Below are positions 22,073-43,664 of a stretch of 64,000 nt of DNA, in pieces. The stretch is taken from contig JALOKP010000007.1 in assembly GCA_025456425.1 (NCBI GenBank), positions 622-64,621 of the forward strand, given 5' to 3'. Below the pieces are notes generated by a model that made no database searches, was not told the origin of the DNA, and saw nothing but the letters and a program-made list of their open reading frames with translations. Numbering within the stretch: position 1 is the stretch's first letter; every line of letters starts with the position of its first letter. A program made the position numbers and the translations under genes. Source of the DNA: Acidobacteriota bacterium. Its GTDB lineage: Bacteria > Acidobacteriota > Polarisedimenticolia > J045.

Positions 22073-22912
22073 CTACGCCGCCCGGAACTCCCGCTCGAAC
22101 GGCCCCACCACCCGCCCCTCCGCCGTCGTGTCCGCGATCGCGAACACGACCCGCCGGTACGCCCCCCGGAACGGCCCCTCCAGCGCCTCGCGGAACAGCC
22201 GCGCGACCAGCGCGGGATCGCCGCCGAACGCCCCGCACCCCCACGCCCCCAGCACCATCGCGTCCCGGCCGTGGACCGCGCCCAGCGCCAGCACCCGCGC
22301 GATCCGCGACCGGAACGCCGGCTCGACCTCGCCCAGCCGCCGCGGCGCGAACCGCGCCAGCGCCGCGGTGTACGGCGCGGCGCAGGTCACGATCGTGCAC
22401 GGGTACGGGCTCTCCAGCAGCCGGTGATCGTCCCCGCGGAACACCGGCACGTCGGGCGACCAGATCGCCCAGTCGCTGTACAGGTCGTCGCCCTGCTCCG
22501 CGTGGAAGGCGTACATCCGGCGCCCGACCAGGCACGCAAACAACGCCGACGAGCGGGCCAGCGACTCCTCCTGCGCGCGGGCGCCGCCGAGGAACCCGCC
22601 GCCCGGGGAGACCGCGGAGGCGAAGTTGAGCGCGGCCGCGGCGTAGCCGTCGGCGAGGAGGAGGCGGGCGGCGGCCAGCGTGGACTCGCGGGTCACCTCG
22701 ATGCGAGTGGCGTGGGGGCCGGGGGCGGCGGTCGGGAGGTCGGAGTCGGGCGGGTACTCGACCGTGCGCTCGACGGCGGAGGCGATGGCGGAGTGGAGGT
22801 CGACGCGGGTGCCGGAGGGGGCGGTGTAGGCGGCGGATTCGGTGATGGCGACGGCTTCGCGGCCGAGGGCGGCGGCGAGGCTTCGCGGTATCAGCGGATC
22901 GAAGCTACTCAT
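22073..22912 (-). CDS. TIGR02452-family macro-domain protein (microbial PARG-like ADP-ribose hydrolase fold)
   Basis: 279 aa. ALNFASAVSPGGGFLGGARAQEESLARSSALF and VLGAWGCGAFGGDP are the family signatures. Confidence 0.8.
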   Translation of the reverse strand: MSSFDPLIPRSLAAALGREAVAITESAAYTAPSGTRVDLHSAIASAVERTVEYPPDSDLPTAAPGPHATRIEVTRESTLAAARLLLADGYAAAALNFASAVSPGGGFLGGARAQEESLARSSALFACLVGRRMYAFHAEQGDDLYSDWAIWSPDVPVFRGDDHRLLESPYPCTIVTCAAPYTAALARFAPRRLGEVEPAFRSRIARVLALGAVHGRDAMVLGAWGCGAFGGDPALVARLFREALEGPFRGAYRRVVFAIADTTAEGRVVGPFEREFRAA

Positions 22913-28641: not shown

Positions 28642-30582
28642 CTAGGGACACGGGCGCGTGTTGGCCCTCTCCGTGCCGTCGGACCGCGTGCCGAGTGAGC
28701 TCTCGCCTCCGGCGGACGAGCCAGACACCAGGTAGAAGTTCGCCCCCGAGGCGGACGGCCTGCGGGAATCCGCCTGGGAGTTCCCAGACAGCGCGCACCA
28801 GCTGGCCGCCTCCGGCTCGGCTCCGGGGTCCTGCGTGTACTCCCCCGTCGCCAGCAGCCGGGCCACGCTCCCCCGATACAGGTTGAACCGGTCGAACGTC
28901 ACCTCGTCCTGCCATTCGACAGCCCCACCCTTGGTCAACCGCGTGAAGTACAGGGCGGAGTCATCCAAGTCGCACATGTCGCCCTGGCGATCCCCGTCGC
29001 GGTCGAACTGGTCGGCGTTCCGGTACGCGACGCAGTTGTCGCAGGCGTCGCCCACAAGATCACCGTCCGTATCCGACTGGCTCGGGTTGAACTCCGTGAC
29101 GCAGTTGTCGCACTCGTCACCGTAGCCGTCCCCGTCGGCGTTCGTCTGTGCGGGGTTGGGTAGGAGCACGCAGTTGTCGCAGGCGTTGCCGGCCCCGTCC
29201 GCATCCTCATCGAGCTGCAGGGAATTCGGGATATGCGCGCAGTTGTCGCAGGCGTCTGGCACGGTGTCTTGATCGGAGTCAGCCCCCAAGGGCCCGTCAT
29301 CGACCGTCCCATCGCAGTCGTCGTCGACGCCATTGCAGGATTCGGTGGCTCCTGGGCGGCGGGTCGCGTCTAAGTCGTCGCAGTCACCGGCGCACGAGGA
29401 GATCCCGTCACTGTCCGCATCTACCTCTGCCGGCGGTAGAAGCGGCCAGATGGGGTCATCGCAGTCGTTGTTCCTCCCATCACACGAGTCGAAGGCTCCG
29501 GGATGCGTTGTAGGATCGCCTGGTTCGCAGTCCACAGCGTCTCCGTAGCCGTCGCTGTCGGCGTCGATGCCATAGACCCAAGTATCGTTGCGGACTCCAT
29601 CTGTGCAGTAGTCGAATCCTCCGAAGAGGACGATCACTCCCATGTGTTCCGCATAGGCAGTCGTCGCTTGGTTCATCTGCCTCGCATCGGGAACTGGCGC
29701 CAGTTCGTTCTGATACTCGCAGGAGGATCCGTCCCACTCGAAAGTGGGCATGAAGGTCACTGGGGATGGCCACAGCTGGGAAGGACCCATGAACCTATTC
29801 CGGACGGGATCGTAGTCGAGGATTCCCGCGGCGCAGTCCAGGTTGTCAATCCAGGTGTAGTCAACCCCGTCGTAGCTCCAAGCCTGTCGCCAATCGAACA
29901 CTAGTACCCGCTCAGTTGGGGGATGCCAAAGCAGCCGAGGCGCGTCGAATGCCGGCAGCGCTGTGGGAGTGTGGACCTGTATCCAGTCGACACCGTCGTA
30001 CTCCCAGGTCGTATTGGGGCGCAGGCATGGATCGGCCTTCCCGTCGCTGGTCCGCAGGACGATGACGCCCCGGTGCTCATCGAATGCCATGCCACCGCCG
30101 TTGCAGTAGCCGGGGGAATTCGCCGTGGAAGCGAGGTACCAGTTCGTACCGTCGTACTCCCAAGTGTCGCCCATCGATCCGGAGCCGGGCCGGTACCCGC
30201 CGAACATGACGACGCGGTTGCGGCGCTTGTCGAAGGCGATAGCTGGGTGGTAGCGGCCGGGGGGAGCGGTCGGAGTGACGACCTCGCGCCACGTCCGGCC
30301 ATCGAACTCCCACGTGAAGTCGGTGCGAGGGGTGCGGTTTTGGCAGTTGACGCCTCCCCCGATGAGGACGACTACTTTTCTGGCCGAGTCGTATATGAGA
30401 ACGTGGTGGAAGCGGGCCGGCGGCGAGTTCGGCGGCGTCAGTTGCCGCCATCGAGCCGCCGGGCTGCCGACCGGACCGCAGCCGCACGCCGGCCAGCCGT
30501 ACTGCGAGTTCAAAGAGATTGCAATTGCCGCGATGCACACTGCAAGGCGGACGGTCGACCGTGACCAGATGGACGGCGTCAT
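28642..30582 (-). CDS. Secreted Kelch-repeat protein with MopE-like motifs, thrombospondin type-3 repeats and the shared C-terminal module
   Basis: ATG 30582, with MTPSIWSRSTVRLAVCIAAIAISL at the N-terminus. Kelch-like RxxHxxxYDxxRxxVVxFGG / WEYDGxxW repeats are present. Also DADSDGYGDAVDCEPGDPTTHPGA..CDGRNNDCD and four DxDxDGxGDxCDNC units. The tail ends NTRPCP. Confidence 0.8.
   Translation of the reverse strand: MTPSIWSRSTVRLAVCIAAIAISLNSQYGWPACGCGPVGSPAARWRQLTPPNSPPARFHHVLIYDSARKVVVLIGGGVNCQNRTPRTDFTWEFDGRTWREVVTPTAPPGRYHPAIAFDKRRNRVVMFGGYRPGSGSMGDTWEYDGTNWYLASTANSPGYCNGGGMAFDEHRGVIVLRTSDGKADPCLRPNTTWEYDGVDWIQVHTPTALPAFDAPRLLWHPPTERVLVFDWRQAWSYDGVDYTWIDNLDCAAGILDYDPVRNRFMGPSQLWPSPVTFMPTFEWDGSSCEYQNELAPVPDARQMNQATTAYAEHMGVIVLFGGFDYCTDGVRNDTWVYGIDADSDGYGDAVDCEPGDPTTHPGAFDSCDGRNNDCDDPIWPLLPPAEVDADSDGISSCAGDCDDLDATRRPGATESCNGVDDDCDGTVDDGPLGADSDQDTVPDACDNCAHIPNSLQLDEDADGAGNACDNCVLLPNPAQTNADGDGYGDECDNCVTEFNPSQSDTDGDLVGDACDNCVAYRNADQFDRDGDRQGDMCDLDDSALYFTRLTKGGAVEWQDEVTFDRFNLYRGSVARLLATGEYTQDPGAEPEAASWCALSGNSQADSRRPSASGANFYLVSGSSAGGESSLGTRSDGTERANTRPCP
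28969..29272 (-). repeat. Coding thrombospondin type-3 repeats
   Basis: Same gcagttgtcgca(g/c)gcgt(c/t)(g/t)cc periodicity as at 24727-25177. Confidence 0.75.
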
Positions 30583-30872
30583 CGCGCTCTCTCCGTGGAT
30601 GCTGGTGCTTGCGCCCGACTCGCGATCCCTTGCCCGGGACCGGACGGGTTTCCCAACCTCTTCTGCGCACTCCCCTTGGGAATCTGGTTCCACGACCCCG
30701 ACCCGTTCAAGGCGCGATGCGAAGGCGCTGACATGGAGGCGGCTAACCCGCTTTCACGCTCGGGTTTTCAGGGGCCCGCGCAAACCGCGCTCCGGCCAAG
30801 ATCGGATGGCCTTCGATACCTCGTCGCTTCTGAGGCCGCGTACCATTCCTGGTCAACCAAGGGAGTTCACGC

Positions 30873-31475
30873 GTGCCTGACTCACTCGGCCCTCTGACGG
30901 CCAGCCGTAAGTCCGGCGCCGAGGCGTTCCACCTCGACGGCGAGACCCTCGCATTCGACGTTCTCGACTTCTGGCGCTGGAGCGGCTCGGATCTGCTCGA
31001 GAACACGCGCCGCGGGATCCTCGCCGAGTACATCGTCGCTCGCGCCCTCGGGATCTCAACCGACTCCGTTCGCGCGGGCTGGTCAGCCTACGATCTCGAG
31101 ACTCCCGACGGAATCCGGATCGAAGTCAAATCCGCAGCCTATCTCCAAAGCTGGGCTCAGCAACGGCTCTCCACGATTCAGTTCGCCATCGCGGAGCGCC
31201 GGGGCTGGAGCGCTGAGACGAACCTGCTCGAGGGTACGCCGAGGCGGCACGCCGACGTGTACGTCTTCGCGCTCCTAGCCCACCAGATCAAGGAAGCCGT
31301 GGACCCGATGAATCTCGCCCAATGGCGATTCTGGGCCGTCCCAACGCCACTGCTCGACGAGCGCGCACGAAGCCAGCACTCGATCACGATTCCGTCGCTG
31401 CGGGCGCTGGCGGGGGAGGGGTGTGGGTTCGCGGAGATTCGCGCGGCAGTGTGCCGATGTGTCGGGGGTCGGTAG
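30873..31475 (+). CDS. Hypothetical protein, predicted PD-(D/E)xK nuclease fold
   Basis: GTG 30873 follows an aagggag SD. AEYIVARALG...WSAYDLETPDGIRIEVKSAAY fits E...D...ExK spacing. No named family recognised. Confidence 0.5.
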   Translation: MPDSLGPLTASRKSGAEAFHLDGETLAFDVLDFWRWSGSDLLENTRRGILAEYIVARALGISTDSVRAGWSAYDLETPDGIRIEVKSAAYLQSWAQQRLSTIQFAIAERRGWSAETNLLEGTPRRHADVYVFALLAHQIKEAVDPMNLAQWRFWAVPTPLLDERARSQHSITIPSLRALAGEGCGFAEIRAAVCRCVGGR

Positions 31476-31819
31476 CGGTCTGGTCCCTTGTCGGTCACGA
31501 ACAGTGTCCGGCGCCTCCGTTCGGTGACTGGGCTCCCAGAGAACGCTCCGGTCTCCGAGGTAGTAGGAACTTGTCGCTGCGGGTCCTCAGCCTCTTCAGC
31601 AGCGATCTCCCTCGGATTGGCTTTCAGTTGTCCCGTGATCCGCGGGTCTCCCATGCCGAGCCCGCAGACGAGGACGTGACAACCGAAGTCCAGAGCCTAC
31701 GCAGCGTCGGGGATCGCCAGTCGATCGGGATGCTCGGCTGAGCAAGCGCAGCCGCCGGCCCTGGGCGAACCCTATGTTAGCATTGCCACTTCAATCCTGC
31801 TGATGGCGGAGGGGGGACC

Positions 31820-33037
31820 TTGGCGACATCAGGACCAGAGTTCTTGGCGGCAGCGCGGGATGGGGACCTCGAGGTAATCGAGGCGAGCCTCGCCAAGAAC
31901 CGCGAGCTCCTCGGCTACAAGGACAAGTGGGGGCTGTCGCCGATCCACTGGGCTGCACTGAAGGGGCAGCTGGCGGTCGTCACTCTTCTGCTCGACCAAG
32001 GGGACGATCCAAACCGCGCCTCTCCGAGCGACGACACCCGCCCCATCCACTGCGCCGCCCAAGAGGGCCACGCAGCCGTTATCCAAGTGCTACTCAAGCG
32101 TGGCGCCTCCACCGACGCGCCCGGAGGCGCCGACCGAAACACTGCCCTGCACGCCGCCGCCCGCGACGGTCACATCGAGTCAGTCGCGCTGTTGCTTGCG
32201 AGTGGAGCCGCGGTCGACCAGAAGTGCGGCGACAACGCGACGCCTCTCGAGCTCGCCTGCCGCGGCGGCCACGGGGAGATCGTGGAAAGCCTGCTCGAGG
32301 CGGGTGCCTCCGCCACGAATCAGAACTCCAAGGGTGCCACGCCTCTGCACTACGCGGCGTTCCAAGGCAGCAAGAGGATCGCTTCCGCGCTCATCGAACA
32401 CGGTGCCCAGCTGGACGTGAAAGACATTCAGGGGCGCACCCCCTTGGCGATGGCCCGCCTAGCGGGACACGGGAGCCTGTTCGAGGGGCTCCTCAGCCAG
32501 CTCGCGACCACCAATGGGCGCGACGCTGCCATCGCGGCGATGAAAGACGCCGCCCTTCCGAAATCCCGTGCCTACGGAGATGTACTCAGGGCAGCCCAGG
32601 ACCTCGGCATCGCTAGCTCAGAGAGCTGGCAGCTCGATCCGAGGGTCATGGGGTATTGCTCCGAGATCGCCGGCGCCCTCCTGCGCGACATCGTGAGCCA
32701 CCCGACGCCGCGAGGGCTAGACCTCCGTCTCATTCAGAGGGCCTTCGTGTACATCTCGTACAAGGCGTTCGAATGCGCCCTCTGCGGCGATATCGAGGCG
32801 TCTGAGCCCTACCGCTCCGAGGACCTCCTCAAGGGACCGCACTACGTGAACCTGGATCCCAGCCAGATTGGCGACGCTGAGGACGTCGAGGAATCGGCGC
32901 TCCGGCTCTTCGACGCGTTCCAGCAGCGATGCGTCGCCCTAGCGAACGCGGGCGAGCGGATGGACGTCATGCAGGAAGTCTGGGACGCATTGAGAGCCGC
33001 AGGCATCATCGCGGCGCAAGCAGCCAGACACTCGTAG
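31820..33037 (+). CDS. Ankyrin-repeat protein (about 6 ANK repeats) with an uncharacterised roughly 190-aa C-terminal domain
   Basis: TTG 31820 follows a ggagggggg SD. Repeats such as GLSPIHWAALKGQLAVVTLLLDQGDDPN, NTALHAAARDGHIESVALLLASGAAVD and ATPLHYAAFQGSKRIASALIEHGAQLD are present. Confidence 0.85.
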   Translation: MATSGPEFLAAARDGDLEVIEASLAKNRELLGYKDKWGLSPIHWAALKGQLAVVTLLLDQGDDPNRASPSDDTRPIHCAAQEGHAAVIQVLLKRGASTDAPGGADRNTALHAAARDGHIESVALLLASGAAVDQKCGDNATPLELACRGGHGEIVESLLEAGASATNQNSKGATPLHYAAFQGSKRIASALIEHGAQLDVKDIQGRTPLAMARLAGHGSLFEGLLSQLATTNGRDAAIAAMKDAALPKSRAYGDVLRAAQDLGIASSESWQLDPRVMGYCSEIAGALLRDIVSHPTPRGLDLRLIQRAFVYISYKAFECALCGDIEASEPYRSEDLLKGPHYVNLDPSQIGDAEDVEESALRLFDAFQQRCVALANAGERMDVMQEVWDALRAAGIIAAQAARHS

Positions 33038-33272
33038 TCGCTAATCTGCCGAAGGTGGGGAGCAACATGCCAGGTGGTTCGCCGCCTTCTACCCCACGTT
33101 CCGCACATCTCGGGACCGTCTCTGGCGGATCTCACGGGGCGCGACCAGTTCCGACCGACGTATTCGTGGAACGCCGCCGCCGAACAGACCCGCGCCGGGG
33201 AATCCGCCGCACACGACCATGAGATCAGCGGAAAGAGAGTCCGGAATCCGAGGCGACTGGCAATTCGCTCTG

Positions 33273-33836
33273 CTATTGATCAGGCAAGATCCGCTGCAGT
33301 AGTTCCTCCGCTTGCCGTTCATCTACGTTCGACAGAAGCGTAACCTCGCCGAGCGCGCCCTCGACATCACCCAAGGCGAGATAGCAGTCGGCAGCGCCGC
33401 GGAGTGCCTTGGCATAGCCGGGCTGGAGTGCAGATGCACTCCGGTATGCACCAAGCGCCTCGGCGTACCGCTGCTGAGCGAAGAGGGCGTTTCCGAGATT
33501 GCAGTGCCCGCGGGCGAAGGTGGGATCTGCGGCTACGGCCTGGGAGAACGTATTAGCCGCAGCGGCGAAGCGCCCCGAGTCAAACTGGACGATCCCGAGG
33601 TTGTTCAGGGCCTGAATGTAGTCTGGGCGCAGCGCCACAGCGCGGCCGAGTGCGGTCTCAGCATTCTCGGATTGGTTCAACTTCATGAGACAACAGCCGA
33701 CAATGTAGTGCAGCTCGGGAAGCGTGTCGTCTAGCAGGAGGGCCGAACGACATGCTGCGATCGCCCCTGGGTAGTCACCTACAGCCTCGCGATGAATGGC
33801 CTCGTGGACGAGCTGTTGGAGTTCTGGATTCGGCAT
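33273..33836 (-). CDS. TPR-repeat protein
   Basis: ATG 33836 follows a gggaga SD. GDYPGAIAACRSALLLDDTLPELHYIVGCCLMKLNQSENAETALGRAVALRPDYIQALNNLGIV... gives 4-5 TPR units. Confidence 0.8.
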   Translation of the reverse strand: MPNPELQQLVHEAIHREAVGDYPGAIAACRSALLLDDTLPELHYIVGCCLMKLNQSENAETALGRAVALRPDYIQALNNLGIVQFDSGRFAAAANTFSQAVAADPTFARGHCNLGNALFAQQRYAEALGAYRSASALQPGYAKALRGAADCYLALGDVEGALGEVTLLSNVDERQAEELLQRILPDQ

Positions 33837-33895
33837 CGTCGGGTTCTCCCATTGATCCTGCGTTGCACTACCAGGCGCGGGCCTCGCTGTTGTGC

Positions 33896-34885
33896 CTAGC
33901 TCGCGCGGTACACATGCTGGCGATGCCAGTCGATCGCCTCGAGGCTGGGGCGGCACGAGCTGCGCGTCGGCGGGGTCAGTGCCTGCTGGTGGTATTCCTC
34001 GAGATCGAACCTCTCCCGCTTGGCGCGAGAGACCGCGGGGCTGACCATGACCTCCAGCGACTCGGTGACGCAGAACAGGCCGCGATCGAAGGCCCAGTGG
34101 TGTCGGCGGCAGAGCGAGAGCCCGTTGCGCGGGTCGTCCGGTCCGCCCTGACCGACGCCAATGATGTGGGCTGCCTCCGCCTCGACCAGCGTCTCGGAGG
34201 CTTCGCGCAACAGGAACATCGATTGGCAGACGCTGCACTGATGCCTGTACTCCTCTAGCACCATGCGCTGGAAGGCCTGCTCGCGCGCCGCCCGGCTGGC
34301 GACGTATCGGACGCGGGGTTCGCCGACCTGGAATGGGAGGATCAGGCCGTTGCGCAGGTCGACCTCCTCCAGATCGACGTCGGAGGAGGTTGCCGGCCGG
34401 AGGGCGTCGGCGACCGCCGCCGTGCAGCCCTTGAGGAGGAAGTGCCTTGTTGCCGGCTCATAGCCCGCGACGATGGCGAGGCCCAGGAGGCGGTACCGAG
34501 CGCCACCTGGCGTCTTCGGAGGCTTAGTGGTGACGATGACGAGGATCGGGACGCGATCTTGCATGCAGGCGAAGAGCGCCTTGTTGACGCCGACATCGAG
34601 CCGACCGCGCATCGGGGCGTACCGCATGTCCCAGGTGCCGTTCGGGCCTTGTTCGAAGGTGTCCGGGTAGGCCTCCTCCCGGGCCCCAGCGGCAGACCGG
34701 CTCCAGACGCTGAGGACGTACGGGGAGTCCTTCGGCTTGTAGATCCCCTGGATTAGGGAGTGGATCATCGGGAGGCCGGCCCCCGGGCACTGCGCCTGCG
34801 TGTCCTTGAGGAACGCGGCAGTCTGGTCGGTCCCGAAGTACCGCGAGAGAAACAGAAGCGAGCGAGCGCGTTCGTCGACCGTCAC
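33896..34885 (-). CDS. HNH endonuclease with an N-terminal putative DNA-binding (SRA/YDG-like?) domain; type IV restriction-like
   Basis: 329 aa. The C-terminus YRHQCSVCQ...EAAHIIGVGQGGPDDPRNGLSLCRRHHWAFDRGLF is an HNH_2-type motif. The N-terminus GIYKPKDSPYVLSVWSRSAAG..YPDTF...WDMRY...VPILVIV resembles modified-base reader modules. The GTG start at 34885 lacks a clear SD, so the start is uncertain. Confidence 0.7.
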   Translation of the reverse strand: MTVDERARSLLFLSRYFGTDQTAAFLKDTQAQCPGAGLPMIHSLIQGIYKPKDSPYVLSVWSRSAAGAREEAYPDTFEQGPNGTWDMRYAPMRGRLDVGVNKALFACMQDRVPILVIVTTKPPKTPGGARYRLLGLAIVAGYEPATRHFLLKGCTAAVADALRPATSSDVDLEEVDLRNGLILPFQVGEPRVRYVASRAAREQAFQRMVLEEYRHQCSVCQSMFLLREASETLVEAEAAHIIGVGQGGPDDPRNGLSLCRRHHWAFDRGLFCVTESLEVMVSPAVSRAKRERFDLEEYHQQALTPPTRSSCRPSLEAIDWHRQHVYRAS

Positions 34886-35177
34886 CGGGGGGCCACCCAG
34901 AGGGAGACTTCATCGTACCGAACCCGGGGCGCGGCGGGAAGAGGCCGTCACTGCCGCGAATCCCTGGCCTGCCCTGACGCGAATCCGGCCGCAAGCAGCC
35001 AATCTTCCCACTCTGGCGATATCGTGCGAAGGGGGAACCGCCGCGAAGGGCGACGCGCCTACCGCCACTCCTCCAGTGCTCGGTGACAGGTCGATTGCCA
35101 TACATCCCATTCCTGCCGGTCTAGTGCTGCACACTCTGAGAGTCGATCCACTGAAAGTAAGCGAGTCTGATCCGTAA

Positions 35178-35375
35178 GCCCTCGCTGGAGGACTGCCCTA
35201 CTCCACGTGCTGCCACACGTTCCGAGCCACGGGTATCACCGCCTACCTCGGAAACGGCGGCACCATCGAGAACGCCCAGGCCATCGCCGTGCACCAGTCG
35301 CCCCGAACGGCCGAACTCCACGACCGCACGTCCGACGAAATCACGCTCGACGAAATCGAGCGCATCGTCATCTAG
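35178..35375 (+). pseudogene. 3'-terminal remnant of a tyrosine recombinase/integrase gene
   Basis: The frame opens just after TAA at 35175. Translation ALAGGLPYSTCCHTFRATGITAYLGNGGTIENAQAIAVHQSPRTAELHDRTSDEITLDEIERIVI* is the conserved integrase C-terminus (HxFRATGIT...ESPRTT.LYDR..DEi.LDEiERI). The catalytic Tyr position reads His, and no upstream catalytic domain is present. Confidence 0.7.
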
Positions 35376-36310
35376 ACGGCCTTCTTCACCAACCGGAACA
35401 GGTCCGCGAGCCGCGCCTCCCAGTGCTGCACGTGAATGAGCCGCGCCTTGTGGAGCTTCGCATCCAACAACTCGGCCTTCGTCAACTTCGACAGCGACTC
35501 CCAGTCTCTTTCCAGAACGTACGTCGCGTTCCCGTACCGCGTGCACTCCAGAACGAACAGACTCCGCGCCGGAAAACCGAAAATGACGTACCCGGCGAAG
35601 CCACCGTTGCCGACCGCTGTGAACTCCGGGCCGTACCCGTTCACGGTTTCGAGCCGATGCTCGACCACCGGGCGATTCCCGGCCTTCTGCACGTCGACAA
35701 CGTTCTGGAGCAGCGGCTTCAAGCGTTCCCAGGGCTGCCGTCCCGGCGGCAGCACCCGCCAGTTCAGCCGCATCGTCGAAAGAACACCCGCTGGCCGCAA
35801 CCTCTCGTCGAGAACATCGCACACGCCGAACAGTTCGAGCATCAAGTTGACGTGCAACAGCAAGCGCTCCCCGCGCTGCACGTCGACCACCGCGGCGGGC
35901 GTTGCCACCGCGCGCCTCCCGTCCGCAAGTTCGATGACCTGTAACTCGACGCTCGGCGGCGGCACTGGAGTCCGCGGGTACCGTCGGTACGGAACGTCGA
36001 CGATGTCCGTCACCTCGACCTTGTCTTTGCCGTGCCACTGGAAATACGTCCACTCGCGCTGTCGGTAGCACGTCTCCATTTCCTGGTCGCGGTGGACGAG
36101 CAGCCGCCCCTCCGCGTTGAACCGCGACACGGGACCGACCACCGACGGCAGCACCTTCTCACCCGGTTTCGCATCGGGCGTGAAGCCCGCCTTTCTCAAC
36201 CGCGCGGCGGGGACCTCGTCGACTGGCACTGCGGCAAAGACCCGCGCGCCAGGTGCCACGCCGATGAAATTCGCTTCCACACTCCTGATTCGCTTCTTCT
36301 CGATTCGCAT
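35372..36310 (-). CDS. Hypothetical protein (312 aa), no recognisable domain
   Basis: ATG 36310 lies 8 nt after an aaggag SD. The composition is coding-like (MRIEKKRIRSVEANFIGV...GNATYVLERDWESLSKLTKAELLDAKLHKARLIHVQHWEARLADLF). It lies 13 nt downstream of the DUF2188 gene. Confidence 0.7.
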   Translation of the reverse strand: MRIEKKRIRSVEANFIGVAPGARVFAAVPVDEVPAARLRKAGFTPDAKPGEKVLPSVVGPVSRFNAEGRLLVHRDQEMETCYRQREWTYFQWHGKDKVEVTDIVDVPYRRYPRTPVPPPSVELQVIELADGRRAVATPAAVVDVQRGERLLLHVNLMLELFGVCDVLDERLRPAGVLSTMRLNWRVLPPGRQPWERLKPLLQNVVDVQKAGNRPVVEHRLETVNGYGPEFTAVGNGGFAGYVIFGFPARSLFVLECTRYGNATYVLERDWESLSKLTKAELLDAKLHKARLIHVQHWEARLADLFRLVKKAV

Positions 36311-36323
36311 CCGTTCATCTCCT

Positions 36324-36557
36324 TCAGTGCCGCGTGTCACGCGGCGGGTTCGGGGCGTTGCCGTAACTGTCTTTGTCGCGGATGACGCCCTCGCGGTTGT
36401 GAATGACGACTTCCGACCGCGCGCGCTCCGCAAGATCGCGCGCCCGTTCGATTGCTTCGCGTTGTGTGTCGTGGACCGAGGTCGCGCGCTCGTTCCCCGC
36501 ATCCTTCACCGCCCACCGCCCCTCATGCGGCACCACGTGTTGATTCTTCTTTCCCAT
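36324..36557 (-). CDS. DUF2188-domain small protein
   Basis: 77 aa with a strong SD (aggagga). MGKKNQHVVPHEGRWAVKDAGNERATSVHDTQREAIERARDLAERARSEVVIHNREGVIRDKDSYG matches the DUF2188 pattern. Confidence 0.8.
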   Translation of the reverse strand: MGKKNQHVVPHEGRWAVKDAGNERATSVHDTQREAIERARDLAERARSEVVIHNREGVIRDKDSYGNAPNPPRDTRH

Positions 36558-36669
36558 CGTTTCCTCCTGGACCGTCCTGCGGCCCGTCTGTTTTCTTCAT
36601 TCGCTCCACGCGCCAGCACAGTACTCGTTCACTGTAAGCGGACGACGCGTACACGCTTCGCAAAAAAAA

Positions 36670-37377
36670 TCACAGCACTCCCTGCACGCTCTCCGGGAAC
36701 AGAGCCTCCAGCCTGTACGTCACAACCACCTTGTTGACGTCGAACACCCTCGCCAGCTCGCGCGCTGCCAGGTCCCGCTTCCCCGCCGCCACCGTTTCGA
36801 GGCCCATGCTCCCGACCGGGACGACGAACTCGGCCGCGGCTTCGCGCACCAGTTTCCGTGGCAGCAGCAGGCAGGACATCACTTGATTCGCCTGATACTC
36901 GGCCCACGCGCCGTGGTACTTCCGCTGCCCGTCGCCGGGTCCCACGGAACCCGCGCGGCACAGCACCCGCGGCCGCGTCGGGTCGGCCCAATCACCGAAA
37001 CTCCCCTGCTCGACCTCCTCAAGCGCGATGAGGTGTCCCTGGCAGAGTCCATGCCCCCCCTCGTGCGCCAGAGTCGTGCGCACGCGCCGCTCGCTCGACT
37101 CGGTCGCTTCCTCGGCGAGCGTGCGCGAGACCAACACCGCCGCGACTCCCTCTTTCCCGAAGACCGTCGCGCCGAGCACTTCGGCCGGCAGGTAATCGAC
37201 GAAATCAGGCGTGACCCGGAACTTCTTCTCGATGAACCGCTCGATTCGAATCGGCTCGGGAGACGACGGGTAGAGCCCGACTTCCCGGAGAGCGTCCTCC
37301 GACAGGCGCTCAAATTCCTCCTTCGAGTAGAAGGGCGTCTCCTTGAACTGGCCGCCCGGTCGGTATCGCGTCCTCAT
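36670..37377 (-). CDS. ImmA/IrrE-family (DUF955) zinc metallopeptidase
   Basis: 235 aa. HExxH lies in RVRTTLAHEGGHGLC. The gene shows an ATGA overlap with the upstream XRE gene, the classic XRE-ImmA pairing. Confidence 0.75.
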   Translation of the reverse strand: MRTRYRPGGQFKETPFYSKEEFERLSEDALREVGLYPSSPEPIRIERFIEKKFRVTPDFVDYLPAEVLGATVFGKEGVAAVLVSRTLAEEATESSERRVRTTLAHEGGHGLCQGHLIALEEVEQGSFGDWADPTRPRVLCRAGSVGPGDGQRKYHGAWAEYQANQVMSCLLLPRKLVREAAAEFVVPVGSMGLETVAAGKRDLAARELARVFDVNKVVVTYRLEALFPESVQGVL

Positions 37378-37721
37378 TTGCCGCCCTTCTTCTTCGCGAT
37401 TTCCTCCAACGCCTTCGACAACGCCTCGCCGCTGACCTTGTCGCCCACCAGCCGTCGAAGCGCAACGGCGAACTGCGGGTCCAGCGCCCCGCGCCGCCGG
37501 AGGTCCTCAACCGGTGGCCGCGGGTCGAGCGCCCGCAACTCCTCGACCGGCGTCCGGAGCGCCTTCGCCAGCTTCGTGAGCACATCCTCCGAGGGGTAAC
37601 GACGCCCCAGCTCGATATCCGAGAGAAAAGGCGCCGACACGTCCAGCACCTTCGCGAGGTCGCGAAGTGAAAGGTCGCGGGCCTGCCGCAGTTCTCGGAT
37701 GGTTTCTCCGAAGGTCTTCAC
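37374..37721 (-). CDS. XRE-family helix-turn-helix transcriptional regulator
   Basis: 115 aa. FGETIRELRQARDLSLRDLAKVLDVSAPFLSDIELGRRYPS is a canonical HTH_3 sequence. Confidence 0.85.
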   Translation of the reverse strand: MKTFGETIRELRQARDLSLRDLAKVLDVSAPFLSDIELGRRYPSEDVLTKLAKALRTPVEELRALDPRPPVEDLRRRGALDPQFAVALRRLVGDKVSGEALSKALEEIAKKKGGK

Positions 37722-37727
37722 GCTGTA

Positions 37728-37757
37728 AGCTTACCATGTACGGAAGCCTTCATGCAA
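37728..37757 (-). promoter_or_regulatory. Candidate promoter TTGCAT-N18-TAAGCT ending 6 nt before the XRE GTG (possible leaderless mRNA)
   Basis: Read on the minus strand: ttgcat gaaggcttccgtacatgg taagct tacagc GTG. Confidence 0.3.
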
Positions 37758-37949
37758 CAGACGATTGGCCCCCCCTCGCCATCTCTCCTAACCTGTTGCA
37801 CTGCGCCACTTTACTGTCGCAAGATAGCCTCTCATGAACACTCCCGGGGGACGCGCCACTCATCGAATAGCGAACGGGCCTTCTAACGCGGGGCCCCTCC
37901 ACCATCGCCGAACGTCACACCGCCAAGCGCCGAGGGGGGCAACCCGACC

Positions 37950-40028
37950 GTGACAAAGACATCCGATTCTGGCGCGACCTACGGCCCGCACAACCCGCAC
38001 CCGCTCTCCACTCGGCGCACTGAACTCGTCTGGGAAGGGAAGTACGACGAGCACGGCAACCGCCGTGAATTCGACGTTGCTGCCCTCGCGATGCCCATGC
38101 AGCGCATCGAGACAATCGACCAACCGCGGAGCGAAGCCGCGGCGCGCGGTCAGCTCGCCCTCTTCGAGAAGAAGACCACGCGCGTCGACGACTTCCGTAA
38201 CCGCCTCGTGTGGGGAGATAACAAGCTCGTCACGGCCGGGCTGCTTCGAGACTTCAAGGGTTCCATCGACCTCGTCTACATCGACCCGCCCTTCGACATC
38301 GGCGCCGACTTCTCCATGAATGTCCAAGTCGGTGACGAGAACGACCTCGTTGAGAAGGACCAATCGACACTGGAGATGGTCGCCTACCGCGACACGTGGG
38401 GACGAGGGACGGACTCCTACCTGCAGATGCTCGCCGAGCGCATCGCCACCATGCGGGACCTCCTCTCGCCGACGGGTAGCATCTACGTGCATGTCGGTTG
38501 GGCCGTCTCACACCTCGTGAAGCTCGTTCTTGACGACATCTTTGGCGCTGAGCGCTTTCTGAACCAGCTCATTTGGAAGCGCCAGACTGCGCACAGCGAC
38601 ATCGGGCAGGGTTCCAGGCACCTAGGCCGCATTCACGACGTTATTCTCCTGTACACAAAGGGCGAGCACTTCGCCTGGAATATGCAGTACCAACCCTACT
38701 CGGAAGAATACATCCGCGATTTCTACAAACACGTAGAGCCAGAGTCGGGCCGCCGTTATCGCCTGAGCGACACGACTGGACCAGGCGGCGCCACGAAGGG
38801 AAACCCCCGGTATGAATTCCTCGGCGTAACAAGATTCTGGCGCTTCAAGCAGGAGCGGATGCTGGAGCTGTACCAGCAGGGGCGAATTGTTCAAACGCGC
38901 CCCGGAACGGTTCCACAGCAGAAGCGCTATCTCGACGAAATGCCCGGTGTCCCACTCCAAGACCTCTGGTTCGACATCCCCACCGTTCAACCCCAGGCCG
39001 CGGAACGCACGGGTTACGAAACGCAGAAGCCCGAGGCGTTGATAGAGCGCATCATCACTTTGAGCAGCAACCCCGGTGACCTCGTGGCCGATTTCTTTTG
39101 CGGAAGTGGCACTACCGGCGCCGTTGCGGAACGCCTTGGCCGCCGCTGGCTCATGGCCGACCTCGGCCGCTTCGCCATCCACACGTCGCGTAAGCGCCTC
39201 ATCGACTTGCAGCGCGAGCTTCACAACGAAGCCAAGCCCTACCGCGCTTTTGATGTCTACAACCTCGGGCGCTACGAGCGCCAATGGTGGCAGCGCGAGA
39301 CGCTGAAAGGCGCCGACGAGGAACACCGGCGCGTCGTGCTGGAGTTCTTCAAGGCCGAGATTCTCGACCCCTCGCGCGCCCCGTCCCCCCTCATTCACGG
39401 TCGGAAAGGGCCCGCCCTCTGCCACGTCGACAGCATCGACTCCGTCTTCACGCGCGATGAGGCCACACGCGTCGCCAAGGCGGCGAGCGCCGCGGGGGCG
39501 CGCGACTGCTACTGCCTCGCGTGGGAGTTCGAGATGGACCTCCGCCTCACCACCGCAGCGCTGGAGAAGGAACTCGCCGTTGCGCTTAAGCTTGTACAAA
39601 TCCCGCGCGAAATCATGGAGAAGAACAGGAAGAGCCCCCCGCCCTTCCTCGAAATGGCCGTCCTCAAGGCGGACGCCGTTGTCCACGCCCCGAAACAGAA
39701 GGGCGACCTGCCCTCCGTCGACATCAAGCTCACGAAGTTCCTGCCCTCGCTCGCCGAGGTCCCGAGCGAGGAACTCGAAGCCATCAAGGAACGGGCGATG
39801 AAGAGCGGCTTCGACTTCGTCGACTTCTGGGCCATCGACTTCGATTGGCACCCGGACCAGCCGTTCAATCACCACTGGCAAGACTACCGCACGCGCAAGG
39901 ACCGCTCGCTCAAGACCGTCAGCGACGCCGGGTTCGTGTACCCGAAGAAGGGCACGTACACCGCGTGCGTCAAGGTTGTCGACACGTTCGGCTGCGACAC
40001 CAGCGTCACGGTGGAGGTGCACGTATGA
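37950..40028 (+). CDS. mod: Type III restriction-modification N6-adenine DNA methyltransferase (Mod) with a C-terminal Ig/PKD-like tail
   Basis: 692 aa with GTG start after a gagggggg SD. Motif IV is LVYIDPPF and motif I is DFFCGSGTTGAVAERLGRRW. The tail reads GTYTACVKVVDTFGCDTSVTVEVHV. Confidence 0.9.
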   Translation: MTKTSDSGATYGPHNPHPLSTRRTELVWEGKYDEHGNRREFDVAALAMPMQRIETIDQPRSEAAARGQLALFEKKTTRVDDFRNRLVWGDNKLVTAGLLRDFKGSIDLVYIDPPFDIGADFSMNVQVGDENDLVEKDQSTLEMVAYRDTWGRGTDSYLQMLAERIATMRDLLSPTGSIYVHVGWAVSHLVKLVLDDIFGAERFLNQLIWKRQTAHSDIGQGSRHLGRIHDVILLYTKGEHFAWNMQYQPYSEEYIRDFYKHVEPESGRRYRLSDTTGPGGATKGNPRYEFLGVTRFWRFKQERMLELYQQGRIVQTRPGTVPQQKRYLDEMPGVPLQDLWFDIPTVQPQAAERTGYETQKPEALIERIITLSSNPGDLVADFFCGSGTTGAVAERLGRRWLMADLGRFAIHTSRKRLIDLQRELHNEAKPYRAFDVYNLGRYERQWWQRETLKGADEEHRRVVLEFFKAEILDPSRAPSPLIHGRKGPALCHVDSIDSVFTRDEATRVAKAASAAGARDCYCLAWEFEMDLRLTTAALEKELAVALKLVQIPREIMEKNRKSPPPFLEMAVLKADAVVHAPKQKGDLPSVDIKLTKFLPSLAEVPSEELEAIKERAMKSGFDFVDFWAIDFDWHPDQPFNHHWQDYRTRKDRSLKTVSDAGFVYPKKGTYTACVKVVDTFGCDTSVTVEVHV

Positions 40029-43000
40029 CCGACGGCACCATCAGCCCGGCCGCTTTGGAATCGCTCTTCGAGCCCTGGGAGGAGCCCCGTGCCCACCGCG
40101 TGAAGATCACCGAGAAGGGCAAGCCGGCCCGCATCGTCAACCAACGTCGGCCCTCCCCCTTCCCCATCGTCCAGAACCTCCGGGCCGAGGTGAAGCAGTG
40201 GCGCGAGAGCTTCTACGTCGGCGCGTCCGACACGAGCCGCGCGCTCCTCACCCATTGGTTCGAGCGCCCGCACCGCATGACAACCCCCGCGGGTGATGAG
40301 TTCGAGTTCCGCTACTACTTCTGCCAACGCGAAGCCGTTGAGACGCTCGTCTACCTCAAGGAGTTTCGGCACATCGAATGCCTCTCCGGCCTCATCTCGG
40401 AATTCGAGGGCCCCGGCCGCGAGCAGGCCGCGCTCGGCGTCACCCCCGAGGAGGACGCCTGGACGCGCTTCGCCTTCAAGCTCGCCACCGGAGCCGGAAA
40501 AACGAAGGTCATGAGCCTCGCGATTGTGTGGAGCTACTTTCACGCACTCCGCGAGTCGGACTCTGACCTCGCCAAGCACTTCGTCGTCATCGCGCCGAAT
40601 CTCACCGTCTACGAACGCTTGAAGGAAGACTTTGGCGACGGCCGCGTCTTCGACAACGACCCGCTCGTCCCGCCCGAGTGGCGCGGCGATTGGAACATGA
40701 GCGTCGTGCTCCAGGACGAGGCGAGCGGCGCTGCGACCGGCGGCACGCTCTACCTCACGAACATCCACCGGCTCTACGACATGGCGAAGCGCCGCGGGAA
40801 GGACGCCGAGACCTATTCCTTCATGGGCCCGCCCGTTTCGAAAGGCACCGCGCTGGACACCGGAGCCGCGCTCCGCGACCGCGTCACCGCGCACAACCGC
40901 GTGATGGTCCTCAACGACGAAGCCCACCACGTCTGGGACCCCGACTCGGCCTGGAACGAGGCGATTCAATTTCTCCACGAGACCATCAAGTCGCGCACGG
41001 GCGGCGGTCTCGCCGCCCAGCTCGATTTCAGCGCGACGCCGAAAGACAACCGCGGCCAGCCGTTCAAGCACATCGTCTGCGACACCCCGCTCGGTGAGGC
41101 CGTCGACGCGGGCATCGTCAAGACGCCCATCATCGGTAAGACCGACCAGGAACTCCACGAGGAGCCGAGCGACAACGCCGCGTACCGCTTCGACCGGCAC
41201 CTCCGCATCGGTTACGAGCGCTGGAAGCACAGCCGCGACGAGTGGACCAAGTCCGGGAAGAAGGCGCTTCTTTTCGTCATGTGCGACAGCACCGAGAGCG
41301 CCGACCAGATCACGGCGCGCCTTAACACCGACCCGAGCTTCCAAGACCTCAACGGCAAGACCATCAACCTGCACACCAACCTCAAGGGGTCGGTGAAGAA
41401 GGTCGGCCGCGGCCCCTCCGCGCGCCTCCAATTCGTCGAGAGCGACAAGGACATCAAGGACGAGGACCTCAAAGCGCTGCGCGAACTCAGCCGCAACCTC
41501 GACCAGAACACGACGCCCTATGCCTGCATCGTTTCCGTCCTCATGCTCCGCGAGGGCTGGGACGTGCGGAACGTCACGACCATCGTGCCTCTCCGCGCGT
41601 ATTCGGCCGCGGCCGGCATCCTGCCCGAACAGACTCTCGGCCGCGGGCTCCGGCGCATCACGCCGCCCGGCAAGCAGGGCGCGCACGAGATTCTCACCGT
41701 CGTCGAACACCCCGCCTTCGCCGCGCTCTACGAGCAGCAGCTCGCCCAGGAAGGACTCCCCATCGAGGTCGTCGACGTCGACCAGATCCCGAGCACCACG
41801 GTGTCGATTTACCCCGACGAGGCCCGCAAGGACCTCGCGGCCCTGGAACTCGCCGTGCCCGGCCTCACGCCCGGGCTCCGCATCATCCCGAAGCTCGAAG
41901 GCCTCGCCCTCGACGATGTCAAGAAGGGCTTTGCGAAGTTCAAGCGGTTACCGCTGGCCAAGGAAGTGCGTACTGAGCTCGACTACGAGGGGAAACACCT
42001 CTTCACCGGCGAAATCATCGAGCGGATGAAGCTCCACATCCCACTCCTCGAAAGTGGCGTCGGCGCCGTGTCGTATTACGTCCAGCAGCTCGAACAGATT
42101 TGCAAACTGCGGAGCCTGCACACGATTCTCGCGCCGCTCCTCCAGACGTTCTTCGAGGAGGTCCTGTTCGAGGAGAAGGCAACGCTGTTCGACCCGCGCC
42201 TCGTGGCACGGCTCGGCAACTCCGACGTCGCGGAACACGTGCGCGCGGTCTTTGTTCCACTCATCCGCGCGCGCACCATCAGCAGCGAACGGCGCGCGGC
42301 GACGGGCGAGGCGATGCGCCTCTCCCGGTGGCGCGCGTACCAAGTCACGCACAGCGAACGCCGCCCGGCCCTCGAAGCCCAGAAGACGCTTTTCAACCTG
42401 GTCCCCTGCAACCGCGAGCTGGAAGTCGCGTTCGCGCGCTACGCCGACCGCGCGGCCGACGTCACCGCGTTCGCGAAAAACGCCGGTCCGCAGTGCCTCC
42501 GCATCGACTATCTCGGGACCGCAGGGAACCTCGCCTTCTACACCCCGGATTTCTTCGTCCGCACCACCGACGGCACGTCCTACCTCGTCGAGACCAAGGG
42601 ACGTGAGGACCGCGACGTGCCGCGTAAGGCCCGCGCCGCCGTTGCGTGGTGCGAGGCCGCCTCCGACCCGGCCGGCGCGTGGGAGTACCTCTACGTGCCC
42701 CAGGGGGTCTTCGAGCGCATCAGCACGGCGACGATTCGCGAACTCGCCGACACCTGCCGCCCGGCGCTCCGTAACCTCGTCGAGGAAGAGGACCTCCAGG
42801 CGAAGTACCCACTTTTCGCCGCCATCGCCGAAGCACGAGCCGCCGAGGACGAGAAGGCTCCCGAGACCCTTGTGCCGGAGGAGACCCTCAAGGCTCTTCC
42901 CGACCGCTACCGGAAGGCGGTCGAGCAAGCCACGATGCTCTACCGATTCCTTGAGAACAAAGAGGGCCTCAACTACGCGCCGGTTTTCAACGCCCTCCTC

Positions 43001-43450
43001 GGCTCACTCGACGAGGCCGCCAAGGGCCTCATCGTCCGGAGGCTCCAAGGCGACCTCCCCGCCGGGGTCGCCGACCAGAAGGCTCTCTTCGACCCCTACC
43101 TCGCCCACGCCGACGGCGGGCAGCGCCGCCACTACGAAACCATGGCGCAGAACCTCAAGCGCACGCTCGTATTCGGGAACGGGGTCTCCCCTCTCGGGCT
43201 CTTGAGGAACTGTCTCGACTTCGCCCTCAACGACAAGAACAAGATCGGCGGCATCTTCGAAGCCGTGACGACCCGCTTCCGGACCACCGGCTCGCGCGAG
43301 TTTCTTGCGAGCGTGGAGGCCGTCTACGACTTTCGGAACACTTACATCGCGCACCAGGAGAGAGAGCTAACGGACGCCGCACTGACGCGAAGGGAACTCA
43401 TCCGCTGGATTGAAACTCTGAAGGCGATTTCGCTGGCACCGACGACTTGA
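40025..43450 (+). CDS. res: Type III restriction enzyme Res subunit (SF2 helicase + PD-(D/E)xK nuclease) with an extra roughly 190-aa C-terminal HEPN-like domain
   Basis: ATG 40025 overlaps the mod stop (ATGA). Helicase motifs are KLATGAGKTKV (Walker A) and VLNDEAHHV (DEAH). The nuclease motif is YTPDFFVRTTDGTSYLVETKG. The C-terminal extension ends in AVYDFRNTYIAHQE, which fits Rx5H. Confidence 0.9.
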   Translation: MTDGTISPAALESLFEPWEEPRAHRVKITEKGKPARIVNQRRPSPFPIVQNLRAEVKQWRESFYVGASDTSRALLTHWFERPHRMTTPAGDEFEFRYYFCQREAVETLVYLKEFRHIECLSGLISEFEGPGREQAALGVTPEEDAWTRFAFKLATGAGKTKVMSLAIVWSYFHALRESDSDLAKHFVVIAPNLTVYERLKEDFGDGRVFDNDPLVPPEWRGDWNMSVVLQDEASGAATGGTLYLTNIHRLYDMAKRRGKDAETYSFMGPPVSKGTALDTGAALRDRVTAHNRVMVLNDEAHHVWDPDSAWNEAIQFLHETIKSRTGGGLAAQLDFSATPKDNRGQPFKHIVCDTPLGEAVDAGIVKTPIIGKTDQELHEEPSDNAAYRFDRHLRIGYERWKHSRDEWTKSGKKALLFVMCDSTESADQITARLNTDPSFQDLNGKTINLHTNLKGSVKKVGRGPSARLQFVESDKDIKDEDLKALRELSRNLDQNTTPYACIVSVLMLREGWDVRNVTTIVPLRAYSAAAGILPEQTLGRGLRRITPPGKQGAHEILTVVEHPAFAALYEQQLAQEGLPIEVVDVDQIPSTTVSIYPDEARKDLAALELAVPGLTPGLRIIPKLEGLALDDVKKGFAKFKRLPLAKEVRTELDYEGKHLFTGEIIERMKLHIPLLESGVGAVSYYVQQLEQICKLRSLHTILAPLLQTFFEEVLFEEKATLFDPRLVARLGNSDVAEHVRAVFVPLIRARTISSERRAATGEAMRLSRWRAYQVTHSERRPALEAQKTLFNLVPCNRELEVAFARYADRAADVTAFAKNAGPQCLRIDYLGTAGNLAFYTPDFFVRTTDGTSYLVETKGREDRDVPRKARAAVAWCEAASDPAGAWEYLYVPQGVFERISTATIRELADTCRPALRNLVEEEDLQAKYPLFAAIAEARAAEDEKAPETLVPEETLKALPDRYRKAVEQATMLYRFLENKEGLNYAPVFNALLGSLDEAAKGLIVRRLQGDLPAGVADQKALFDPYLAHADGGQRRHYETMAQNLKRTLVFGNGVSPLGLLRNCLDFALNDKNKIGGIFEAVTTRFRTTGSREFLASVEAVYDFRNTYIAHQERELTDAALTRRELIRWIETLKAISLAPTT

Positions 43451-43664
43451 GGGAGGGTTCGTGGCAACACAAGAGACGACCATGTAGGGAGTTCATGGCG
43501 GCAGAACCGGCGACGCCGACACCCCTTTCCTCGTGCATCAGGAGTGGCCCCCGCGCCCACCGCGCGGCGGCCCGGCAACCTGGGCGGACACCCAAGGTGC
43601 CTTCCCGCGGGACGCGGGGATGCGGTCCGGGCGAGAGCCCCGGGCAACCAAGTGTCCGGACGAG

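Follow-up and report, generated by a model that had tools for sequence, protein, structure and literature searches.

Switches built from an XRE-family helix-turn-helix (HTH) repressor and an HExxH M78 peptidase are known from several systems, and those closest to the locus described here are the CapH/CapP pairs of E. coli MS115-1 and Thauera sp. K11 (bioRxiv 10.1101/2022.04.27.489752; bioRxiv 10.64898/2026.05.16.725639), the DdrO/IrrE (PprI) pair of Deinococcus, and the ImmR/ImmA pairs of ICEBs1 and phage phi105. CapH/CapP-like pairs have also been found with operons containing DUF2188 and a cyclase, or DUF2188 and hypothetical proteins, which are listed as putative defense systems by Lau et al. 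2022 (bioRxiv 10.1101/2022.04.27.489752, Fig. 6F), who cite Burroughs & Aravind 2020 for the predicted defense role. Here we describe a related locus in a 64,000-nt stretch of contig JALOKP010000007.1 from an Acidobacteriota genome (the window; coordinates of the locus are positions in it), where four consecutive genes on the minus strand encode an XRE repressor, a short ImmA-type peptidase, a DUF2188 protein, and a 312-residue protein, U312, which we regard as the candidate effector of a stress-gated module.

The XRE gene (37721–37374) starts with GTG and encodes 115 amino acids, and its stop codon overlaps the start of the 235-codon ImmA gene (37377–36670) by 4 nt, in an ATGA. After a gap of 112 nt comes the DUF2188 gene (36557–36324, 77 amino acids), which is preceded by AGGAGG, and the U312 gene (36310–35372) follows after a further 13 nt, with AAGGAG upstream of its start. 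The GTG start of XRE is confirmed because the N-terminus, MKTFGE, fits the MKT(L/F)GE pattern of the family (consensus MKTLGE) among 39 homologues. A 376-residue open reading frame (ORF) call for U312, starting at 36502, was discarded as too long, the N-termini of the homologues being MRIEKKRIRS. All four ORFs have the coding GC pattern typical of the genome (GC3 0.77–0.84, GC2 0.42–0.46), and the genes, gaps, and Shine-Dalgarno sites listed in an earlier note on this DNA are all present.

Both regulatory proteins find their nearest counterparts in the systems named above. XRE matches the Pfam HTH_31/HTH_3 domains (E 1e-15) and the PADLOC capH model (E 6.5e-13, with residues 2–110 aligned to profile positions 5–96 of 103), and its nearest solved structure is Deinococcus DdrO (E 1e-9); partial matches of XRE alone to RmrA pass through the HTH domain only. 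XRE is conserved over its full length in the 39 homologues, and its likewise conserved C-terminal region includes the motif PPVEDL74-R75RR, of which the conserved hydrophobic-arginine pair L74-R75 is analogous to F82-R83 of CapH. ImmA matches Pfam Peptidase_M78 (E 2e-7) and PADLOC capP (E 8e-8), and both its H105-E106-x-x-H109 motif (HEGGH) and E160 (within an EYQAN motif) are invariant among 21 homologues of 44–67% identity. Also invariant is Cys140 (codon 36958–36960), followed by arginine and usually aspartate, in the 50-residue loop that separates the HExxH motif from the glutamate ligand; this is where CapP has its autoinhibitory cysteine-switch loop, a feature of about a third of CapP proteins. 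The AlphaFold2 (AF2) model of ImmA has a pLDDT of 81, falling to 45–56 in the Cys140 loop, and its only significant neighbors in the PDB are IrrE/PprI structures (probability 1.0, TM 0.46–0.48), among them the complex 8sln with single-stranded DNA (ssDNA).

The resemblance to CapP does not extend to the C-terminal part of the peptidase. Alignment to the PADLOC capP model stops at profile position 124 of 242, and ImmA has 235 residues as opposed to about 288, with 75 residues after E160 where E. coli CapP has about 160 after E128. In the AF2 model the part beyond residue 180 consists of two short strands and two helices, and no full C-terminal GAF domain, which forms the ssDNA groove in CapP, was found there, the segment being too short for one. 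On its sequence we class ImmA as a short, GAF-less CapP-like peptidase rather than a canonical CapP, and the XRE/ImmA pair as a CapH/CapP-type switch, of a kind already known; such a peptidase poses the question of how activation proceeds without the known ssDNA groove. A short, GAF-less M78 anti-repressor encoded in one operon with an XRE repressor, in overlapping genes, is also what the ImmR/ImmA pairs have, although these govern the excision and transfer of their elements, while the sole trace of an integrase near this locus is a dead fragment on the opposite strand, and element genes do not make up its cargo. DdrO and IrrE, which are the best solved relatives of the two proteins, share with the locus a C-terminal dimerization region with a cleavage site next to an arginine (predicted in XRE), and differ from it in controlling a chromosomal repair regulon and in the GAF domain of IrrE; the cassette described here is mobile and carries two cargo genes.

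Sister loci were collected from the closest ImmA homologues and from a scan of metagenome contigs, giving 83 loci, 76 of them distinct, and their layout is near-invariant: an XRE gene encoding 112–130 residues, an ImmA gene mostly overlapping it by 4 nt, a T-run, an operator, and a co-directional cargo operon. The genes upstream of and divergent from XRE vary, and it is the downstream, co-directional operon that is conserved, in contrast to the CapH/CapP systems, in which the operon is divergent from the regulatory pair; a promoter-overlapping operator is common to both. The operators in the sister loci are described by the expression TGT[ACT][ACG][GAC]C-N4-10-GC[TCA][TG]A[CT] (in short form TGTAMGC-N4-10-GCTTAC), and this bipartite motif is present no more than 70 nt from the ImmA stop codon in 58 of the 76 distinct loci, compared to a shuffled expectation of 0.075 per set. 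It starts at a median of 16 nt past the stop codon. The −35 box ahead of it is TTGAC-like, and the −10 box, TACANT, lies within its right arm. A run of 5–9 T residues follows the ImmA stop in 54 of the 76 loci.

The window conforms closely to this pattern. The predicted cargo promoter/operator (36631–36669, minus strand) has a T8 run directly after the ImmA stop, followed by the bipartite operator O2, TGTACGC-N7-GCTTAC (in full, TGTACGCGTCGTCCGCTTAC), which lies exactly 16 nt past the stop, the modal position, and overlaps a TACAGT −10-like hexamer; a predicted repressor operator is thereby placed within the cargo promoter. The XRE promoter and its operator O1 (37725–37757, minus strand) have the form TTGCAT-N18-TAAGCT, with a palindrome, GTAAGCTTAC, overlapping the −10 box. 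Since this promoter reads TTGCAT-N18-TAAGCTTAC-AGC-GTG, the start codon is only 6 nt past the −10, and the XRE mRNA is probably leaderless. Of 44 sister loci, 26 have a similar promoter, TTGACA-N17-TAAGCT[TG]A[CT], at 0–14 nt ahead of the XRE start, and three others have it farther upstream. The two operators appear to be related, as the 8-mer GCTTACAG has just two occurrences in the 64-kb window, once in O1 and once in O2. This layout implies that one repressor serves both its own promoter and the cargo promoter, and that DUF2188-U312, and not the divergent genes, occupies the regulated slot. We considered whether the T8 run marks a classical intrinsic terminator behind ImmA, and rejected this as the upstream stem is no better than in shuffled sequences (z = 0.31); a role as an UP-like promoter element is at least as likely, given that the run abuts the TTGAC −35 box in the sister loci.

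What the cargo slot holds in the sister loci is informative. A Pfam census of 144 cargo proteins from 66 loci yielded 25 ThiF/E1, 9 HNH_2, 7 DUF6791, 6 SAVED, and 4 SMODS matches, together with patatin, S_4TM, OLD-TOPRIM/AAA_15, MT-A70, and DAC cyclase proteins, and PADLOC recognizes E1-E2, endonuclease effectors of CBASS (antiphage signaling systems based on cyclic oligonucleotides), and SAVED-HNH among them. The operons are of the CBASS, E1/E2/JAB, OLD-type, and DUF2188-led kinds. The proposal of the earlier note, a cleavable-repressor switch with a downstream cargo, is thus supported by the 83 sister cassettes, by the operator that most of them share with the window, and by the recognized defense operons in the slot, and the locus differs from CapH/CapP in having an uncharacterized candidate effector where these have a known system. 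Bil-like operons with Multi_ubiq, E2, JAB, and ThiF genes, the commonest cargo of this cassette subfamily, are also seen with an XRE+M78 pair of their own a few kilobase pairs from U312 homologues (L083, 6805–10079; L082, 1186–3324; L090 and L093–L095; L numbers denote individual loci).

The DUF2188 protein of the window is readily identified (PF09954, E 1.8e-25; phrog_3220), and is matched by PADLOC PDC-S16 (PDLC04941, E 1.2e-34), which is a PADLOC candidate and not a validated system; a search of PDB sequences with it did not recover 5JN6. In four sister loci (L092, L132, L116, and L163) the cargo operon is headed by DUF2188, and what comes next is a DAC cyclase in L092, a Zn-dependent phospholipase C in L132, an E1-like protein in L163, or else unknowns. 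The order XRE, M78, DUF2188, variable effector is that of the DUF2188 operons of Lau et al. 2022, with L092, whose DUF2188 is visibly close in sequence to that of the window, representing their cyclase type; their Extensimonas 'hypothetical proteins' are comparable with U312 by description only. The earlier note had described the downstream pair as lacking an assigned function, which holds for U312, but not for DUF2188, a PADLOC candidate and a leader gene already listed by those authors. What is new here is the precise layout of the short, GAF-less cassette subfamily and the presence of U312 as its cargo, the switch and the DUF2188 leader being already known.

U312 belongs to a large family of its own. 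Matches to it are absent from Pfam, NCBIfam, PADLOC, and PHROGs; a Pfam scan of 30 diverse relatives at E≤1 returned sporadic noise only (e.g. Mec-4_10_cyt in two members), and the best E-value of the family profile against all PDB sequences is 0.32. The AF2 model is of high confidence (pLDDT 91.3, pTM 0.85), and a Foldseek search with it against the PDB and BFVD found nothing below E 0.07. Long-hairpin pore toxins that headed the Foldseek list (probability ≤0.12) were dismissed as an artefact of the β-hairpin at residues 79–110. These profile, PDB, and Foldseek results agree with the earlier observation that the protein has no recognizable domain. There are at least 691 homologues in a database clustered at 90% identity, and 2,011 clusters at 50% identity with E≤1e-3, 410 of them with E≤1e-30. 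The members are almost all of 300–315 residues and single-domain, and domain fusions sought in the 2,011 representative clusters gave none that is informative, the family being uniformly about 305 residues long. Identities range from 31 to 60% across Pseudomonadota, Bacteroidota, Bacillota, Actinomycetota, Cyanobacteriota, Chloroflexota, phyla of the candidate phyla radiation (CPR), and Methanobacteriota. Conserved residues are N65, E79, R110, Y111, R113, E122, N155, E159, N183, R219, and R290, and the protein is basic, with a pI of 9.6 (family median 9.0); conserved polar residues and basic charge weakly suggest an enzyme with a nucleotide or a nucleic acid as its substrate.

The genomic neighborhoods of U312 homologues, examined in 80 species-representative loci with custom HMMs and a radius of 3.5 kb, are highly variable, although regulatory modules recur among them. 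M78 genes are found in 19 of the 80 loci, XRE-type HTH genes in 18, DUF2188 in seven, and Panacea in five, and 30 loci have at least one of these, nearly always on the upstream side; for 15 of the 19 M78 genes the distance upstream of U312 is no more than 1.3 kb, in either co-directional or divergent orientation. On a U312 tree of 81 rows, 16 changes are required for the M78/Panacea label (25 rows) and seven for that of DUF2188 (8 rows), each label being distributed over more than ten phyla, and this scatter indicates that the association of U312 with a switch has been made or kept many times. The linkage that the earlier note had looked for in other genomes is thus present, with U312 repeatedly found beside XRE, M78, Panacea, and DUF2188 modules and defense-island genes. 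An obligate DUF2188-U312 pair was rejected: the pair recurs elsewhere (e.g. in L085), but it is seen in only about 10% of U312 loci.

Several kinds of switch are represented. Separate XRE and M78 genes are close to U312 in the window and in L037, L009, L024, L038, and L066, whereas in L031, L032, L020, L083, and L085 the two are fused in a protein scoring as the RmrA of RosmerTA. A three-gene unit, coding for a protein of 192–250 residues, one of 126–144 residues, and an M78 peptidase of 257–289 residues, is divergent from U312 in L060, L069, L077, L079, and L081, the last of which holds the closest U312 homologue, and co-directional with it in L015 and L017. Its first two proteins have no Pfam match in the three loci scanned (L079, L060, and L081), and the unit, which has no classical XRE gene, may represent a further type of switch gated by a protease. 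In L004, L008, L014, and L026, U312 is accompanied by HTH-Panacea antitoxins that have RelE- or MqsR-like toxins of their own; we had considered U312 as the PanT toxin of these antitoxins, and discarded this as they already have partners. It follows that U312 is not simply their toxin, and that whole labile-repressor modules stand in front of it.

RosmerTA (RmrT/RmrA; Millman et al. 2022; NetFlax node D25, PMC10440598) is a described toxin-antitoxin (TA) system of similar outline, in that an HTH and an M78 domain are combined with highly variable toxins, and its anti-phage role has been validated. It differs in having both domains in one polypeptide, where the locus has two overlapping genes, and neither U312 nor DUF2188 matches any RmrT model in PADLOC 2.0 at E≤1. 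Strong RmrA-model matches (E down to 1e-107) are present next to U312 in four loci, although for two of the RmrA-like genes, those of L083 and L085, a PIN-like (DUF3368) partner is already present. PanAT systems require a Panacea (DUF4065/SocA) antitoxin, and no Panacea domain is present in the window.

Other neighbors of U312 are consistent with a location in defense islands. PADLOC matches among the immediate neighbors include RmrA, capP, PDC-S16, BilD, and restriction-modification (R-M) and type IV enzymes. L085, with a U312 of 57% identity, has the order PIN-like ← XRE-M78 / DUF2188 → U312 on a plasmid-like contig with a prokaryotic Argonaute (pAgo) alongside; U312 has AIPR on one side and HicAB on the other in a P2-like Marinobacter prophage, and an Acinetobacter plasmid of 8.6 kb has it next to BrnTA. 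The leader position upstream of U312 can also be taken by small proteins that are not DUF2188 (L001, 5263–5520; L009, 5733–5996; L089, 5771–5986). One such leader is of a GQYEI-GxRGG type without a Pfam match, which we take to resemble YjzC, and on a Deinococcus plasmid, with Gabija-like genes alongside, the leader is a KTSC-domain protein whose gene overlaps the U312 start. Lactococcal plasmids are classic carriers of abortive-infection (Abi) genes, and on plasmid 5 of Lactococcus cremoris SK11 (L087, NC_008507.1, 301–5912) the gene for a 1,560-residue DEAD/DEAH-box helicase is followed, after 17 nt, by a distant U312 homologue (25% identity, full length), a pair that might be an unnamed Abi-like system.

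The surroundings of the locus in the window suggest a genomic island. It is situated within a 14.5-kb stretch (about 29000–43500) with a GC content of about 64%, as compared to about 73% for the window as a whole and for the genome. Upstream, and divergent from XRE, is a type III R-M system (mod/res, from 37950) with N6_N4_Mtase and ResIII domains. On the other side, a 65-codon remnant of the C-terminal part of a tyrosine integrase (35178–35375, plus strand; HTFR...LHDR) converges on the U312 stop codon; it reads ...CHTFRATGIT...AVHQSPRTAELHDR..., with a histidine at the position expected for the catalytic tyrosine. Both flanks are as the earlier note had given them. The remnant overlaps a hairpin (35333–35370, minus strand) directly 3′ of the U312 stop, which is the inner stem of a 101-nt stretch (35300–35400) with a folding energy of −44.4 kcal/mol (z = −2.8), and which may be a terminator with a partial U tract. 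Also nearby are the genes of an HNH_2 protein and of an ankyrin protein, and one of the AAA_5 (MoxR) type. The first of these (33896–34885, minus strand) has 329 residues, with HNH_2 at its C-terminus (E 1.3e-11) and an N-terminal half without assignment; HNH_2 is likewise common among the sister-cassette cargo, as noted above. U312 was found in none of 39 relatives of this genome, and the DUF2188 gene is the only one in it. A whole-genome search with an M78 profile returned no copy, missing even the ImmA of the locus, which indicates that M78 genes are, at the least, uncommon in the genome.

These data suggest how the module would operate. An XRE dimer, similar to CapH and DdrO, would bind the related operators O1 and O2 and hold both the regulatory pair and DUF2188-U312 at a low level. 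DNA damage or phage-induced stress would activate the M78 peptidase, an event that the Cys140 loop may restrain, and ImmA would then cut the C-terminal region of XRE, probably at L74-R75, so that dimerization is lost and the cargo is derepressed. DUF2188 would be an accessory or modulator, and U312 an effector with a conserved pocket rich in Glu, Asn, Arg, and Tyr, most likely a nucleic acid- or nucleotide-acting enzyme. Once expressed, U312 would halt the replication of the phage or the growth of the host, as in abortive infection.

We estimate the probability of this account as a whole, a horizontally acquired, stress-gated four-gene module, foreign and accessory to the genome, with U312 as candidate effector, at about 0.5. 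It builds on features established in silico, i.e. gene content, switch family, catalytic residues, operator and promoter architecture, the logic of the slot in 83 loci, and the linkage of U312. Its two parts are not equally secure. That the locus is a CapH/CapP-type cassette with DUF2188-U312 in the cargo slot, behind an operator typical of the family, we consider highly probable. That U312 is an immune or toxic effector is a judgment by association, because the slot holds immune operons elsewhere, the linkage to switches is recurrent, the neighbors are those of defense islands, and the distribution is patchy and foreign, and here we see the chances as evenly balanced. A broader proposal, which we put forward tentatively and at somewhat worse than even odds, is that U312 founds a widespread family of single-protein immune effectors in bacteria, CPR, and archaea, with an unseen fold and a pocket formed by E79, E122, and E159 with R110, R113, N65, N155, and N183, which is plugged into CapH/CapP, RmrA-type, and HTH-Panacea switches as a kill-or-arrest module.

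A number of observations weigh against the account. Binding by XRE, its cleavage, the activating signal, the toxicity, anti-phage activity, and chemistry of U312, and the role of DUF2188 are all predictions. U312 is absent from PADLOC 2.0. It is also absent from all 83 sister cassettes, so the combination of XRE/ImmA with DUF2188-U312 is so far unique, and new. In 50 of the 80 U312 loci there is no recognizable switch or antitoxin nearby, which implies that U312 is not an unconditionally lethal toxin; it is probably conditionally active, either as a self-contained sensor-effector or in a dose-dependent manner. Association with a switch is thus optional for U312, as it also is for CBASS, where fewer than 10% of the operons have CapH/CapP or CapW. 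As XRE-Panacea modules have their own toxins in several loci, some of the proximity may reflect clustering in islands and not direct control. At the locus itself, the −35 hexamer of O2 is poor (GAAGCG), and the trigger may differ from that of CapP and IrrE because peptidases of this subfamily do not have the length for a full ssDNA-binding GAF domain. The operator expression was written post hoc, with the sequences already inspected, although the excess over the shuffled counts is far too large for a selection effect.

Other explanations deserve consideration alongside an immune or toxic U312. The same switch could control a protein of the DNA-damage or stress response, or of the life cycle of a mobile element, acting in repair, replication restart, or processing of element DNA. 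The DdrO/IrrE and ImmR/ImmA paradigms, which govern repair genes or the induction of integrative and conjugative elements (ICEs) and prophages, fit well with this, as do the DdrO match of XRE, a basic charge compatible with DNA binding, the abutting integrase remnant, and homologues on plasmids and in the P2-like prophage. We nonetheless think it unlikely: the neighbors of U312 are mostly defense or TA genes rather than genes for repair, integration, or transfer (Phage_integrase is found in 4 of 148 immediate neighbors), U312 is rare in phages (1 of 50,697 records; 13 of 2.9 million viral contigs), the same cassette drives CBASS and E1/E2 operons elsewhere, and the distribution is extremely patchy, with none of the 39 relatives having U312. 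Alternatively, DUF2188 as a HicB-like antitoxin and U312 as its toxin could be a plain addiction pair that stabilizes the island without defending against phages. The two genes are only 13 nt apart, and they adjoin in the eight labeled rows of the 81-row tree and also in L085 and L184; a published HHpred network has a weak link between DUF2188 and HicB (PMC13621843), and the hyperpromiscuous antitoxin hubs ImmA/RmrA and Panacea are among the neighbors of U312. This is difficult to reconcile with the approximately 90% of U312 genes that have no DUF2188, with the 62% that have no candidate antitoxin of any kind, or with the DAC cyclase, phospholipase, and E1-like effectors that DUF2188 leads elsewhere, as would not be expected of a U312-specific antidote. 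The Panacea proteins beside U312, moreover, come with RelE- or MqsR-type toxins of their own. Overall, an addiction pair seems distinctly improbable.

The position of the R-M genes raises the question of whether XRE/ImmA chiefly regulates these, in the manner of a C-protein, with DUF2188-U312 as an unrelated neighbor. XRE and mod share a 228-bp divergent intergenic region, XRE has a weak similarity to the R-M control proteins of PADLOC (E 2.5e-7), and the CapH/CapP pair is divergent from its operon in Lau et al. 2022. However, across the 83 sister loci it is the co-directional downstream operon that is kept while the divergent genes vary, an operator precedes DUF2188 in the window, and the linkage of U312 to M78 genes is independent of R-M, such that regulation of R-M by the pair is very improbable. 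The back-to-back arrangement that the earlier note had described is correct as to position, and the R-M system is probably a mere neighbor, not the regulated operon. We find it just as hard to credit that the module is a decaying, non-functional relic of a dead integrative element. The adjacent integrase fossil, the poor −35 at O2, and the nature of the source, an 85%-complete metagenome-assembled genome (MAG) known from sequence alone, can be cited in its favor, but the four intact ORFs keep every residue that is invariant in their families, along with both operators and strong Shine-Dalgarno sites.

If U312 is an effector, it would represent a new fold, and probably a new biochemical activity, for prokaryotic immunity, and would help to explain the role of the enigmatic DUF2188 leader. 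The description of the cassette, with its leaderless promoter, T-run, operator about 16 nt past the ImmA stop, and co-directional slot, could be used for a systematic harvest of cargo. Finally, ARAGORN makes two adjacent tRNA-like calls at 22295–22537 (minus strand), one of undetermined type and the other tRNA-Gly(TCC); these are probably false positives, and we have not used them as borders of the island.

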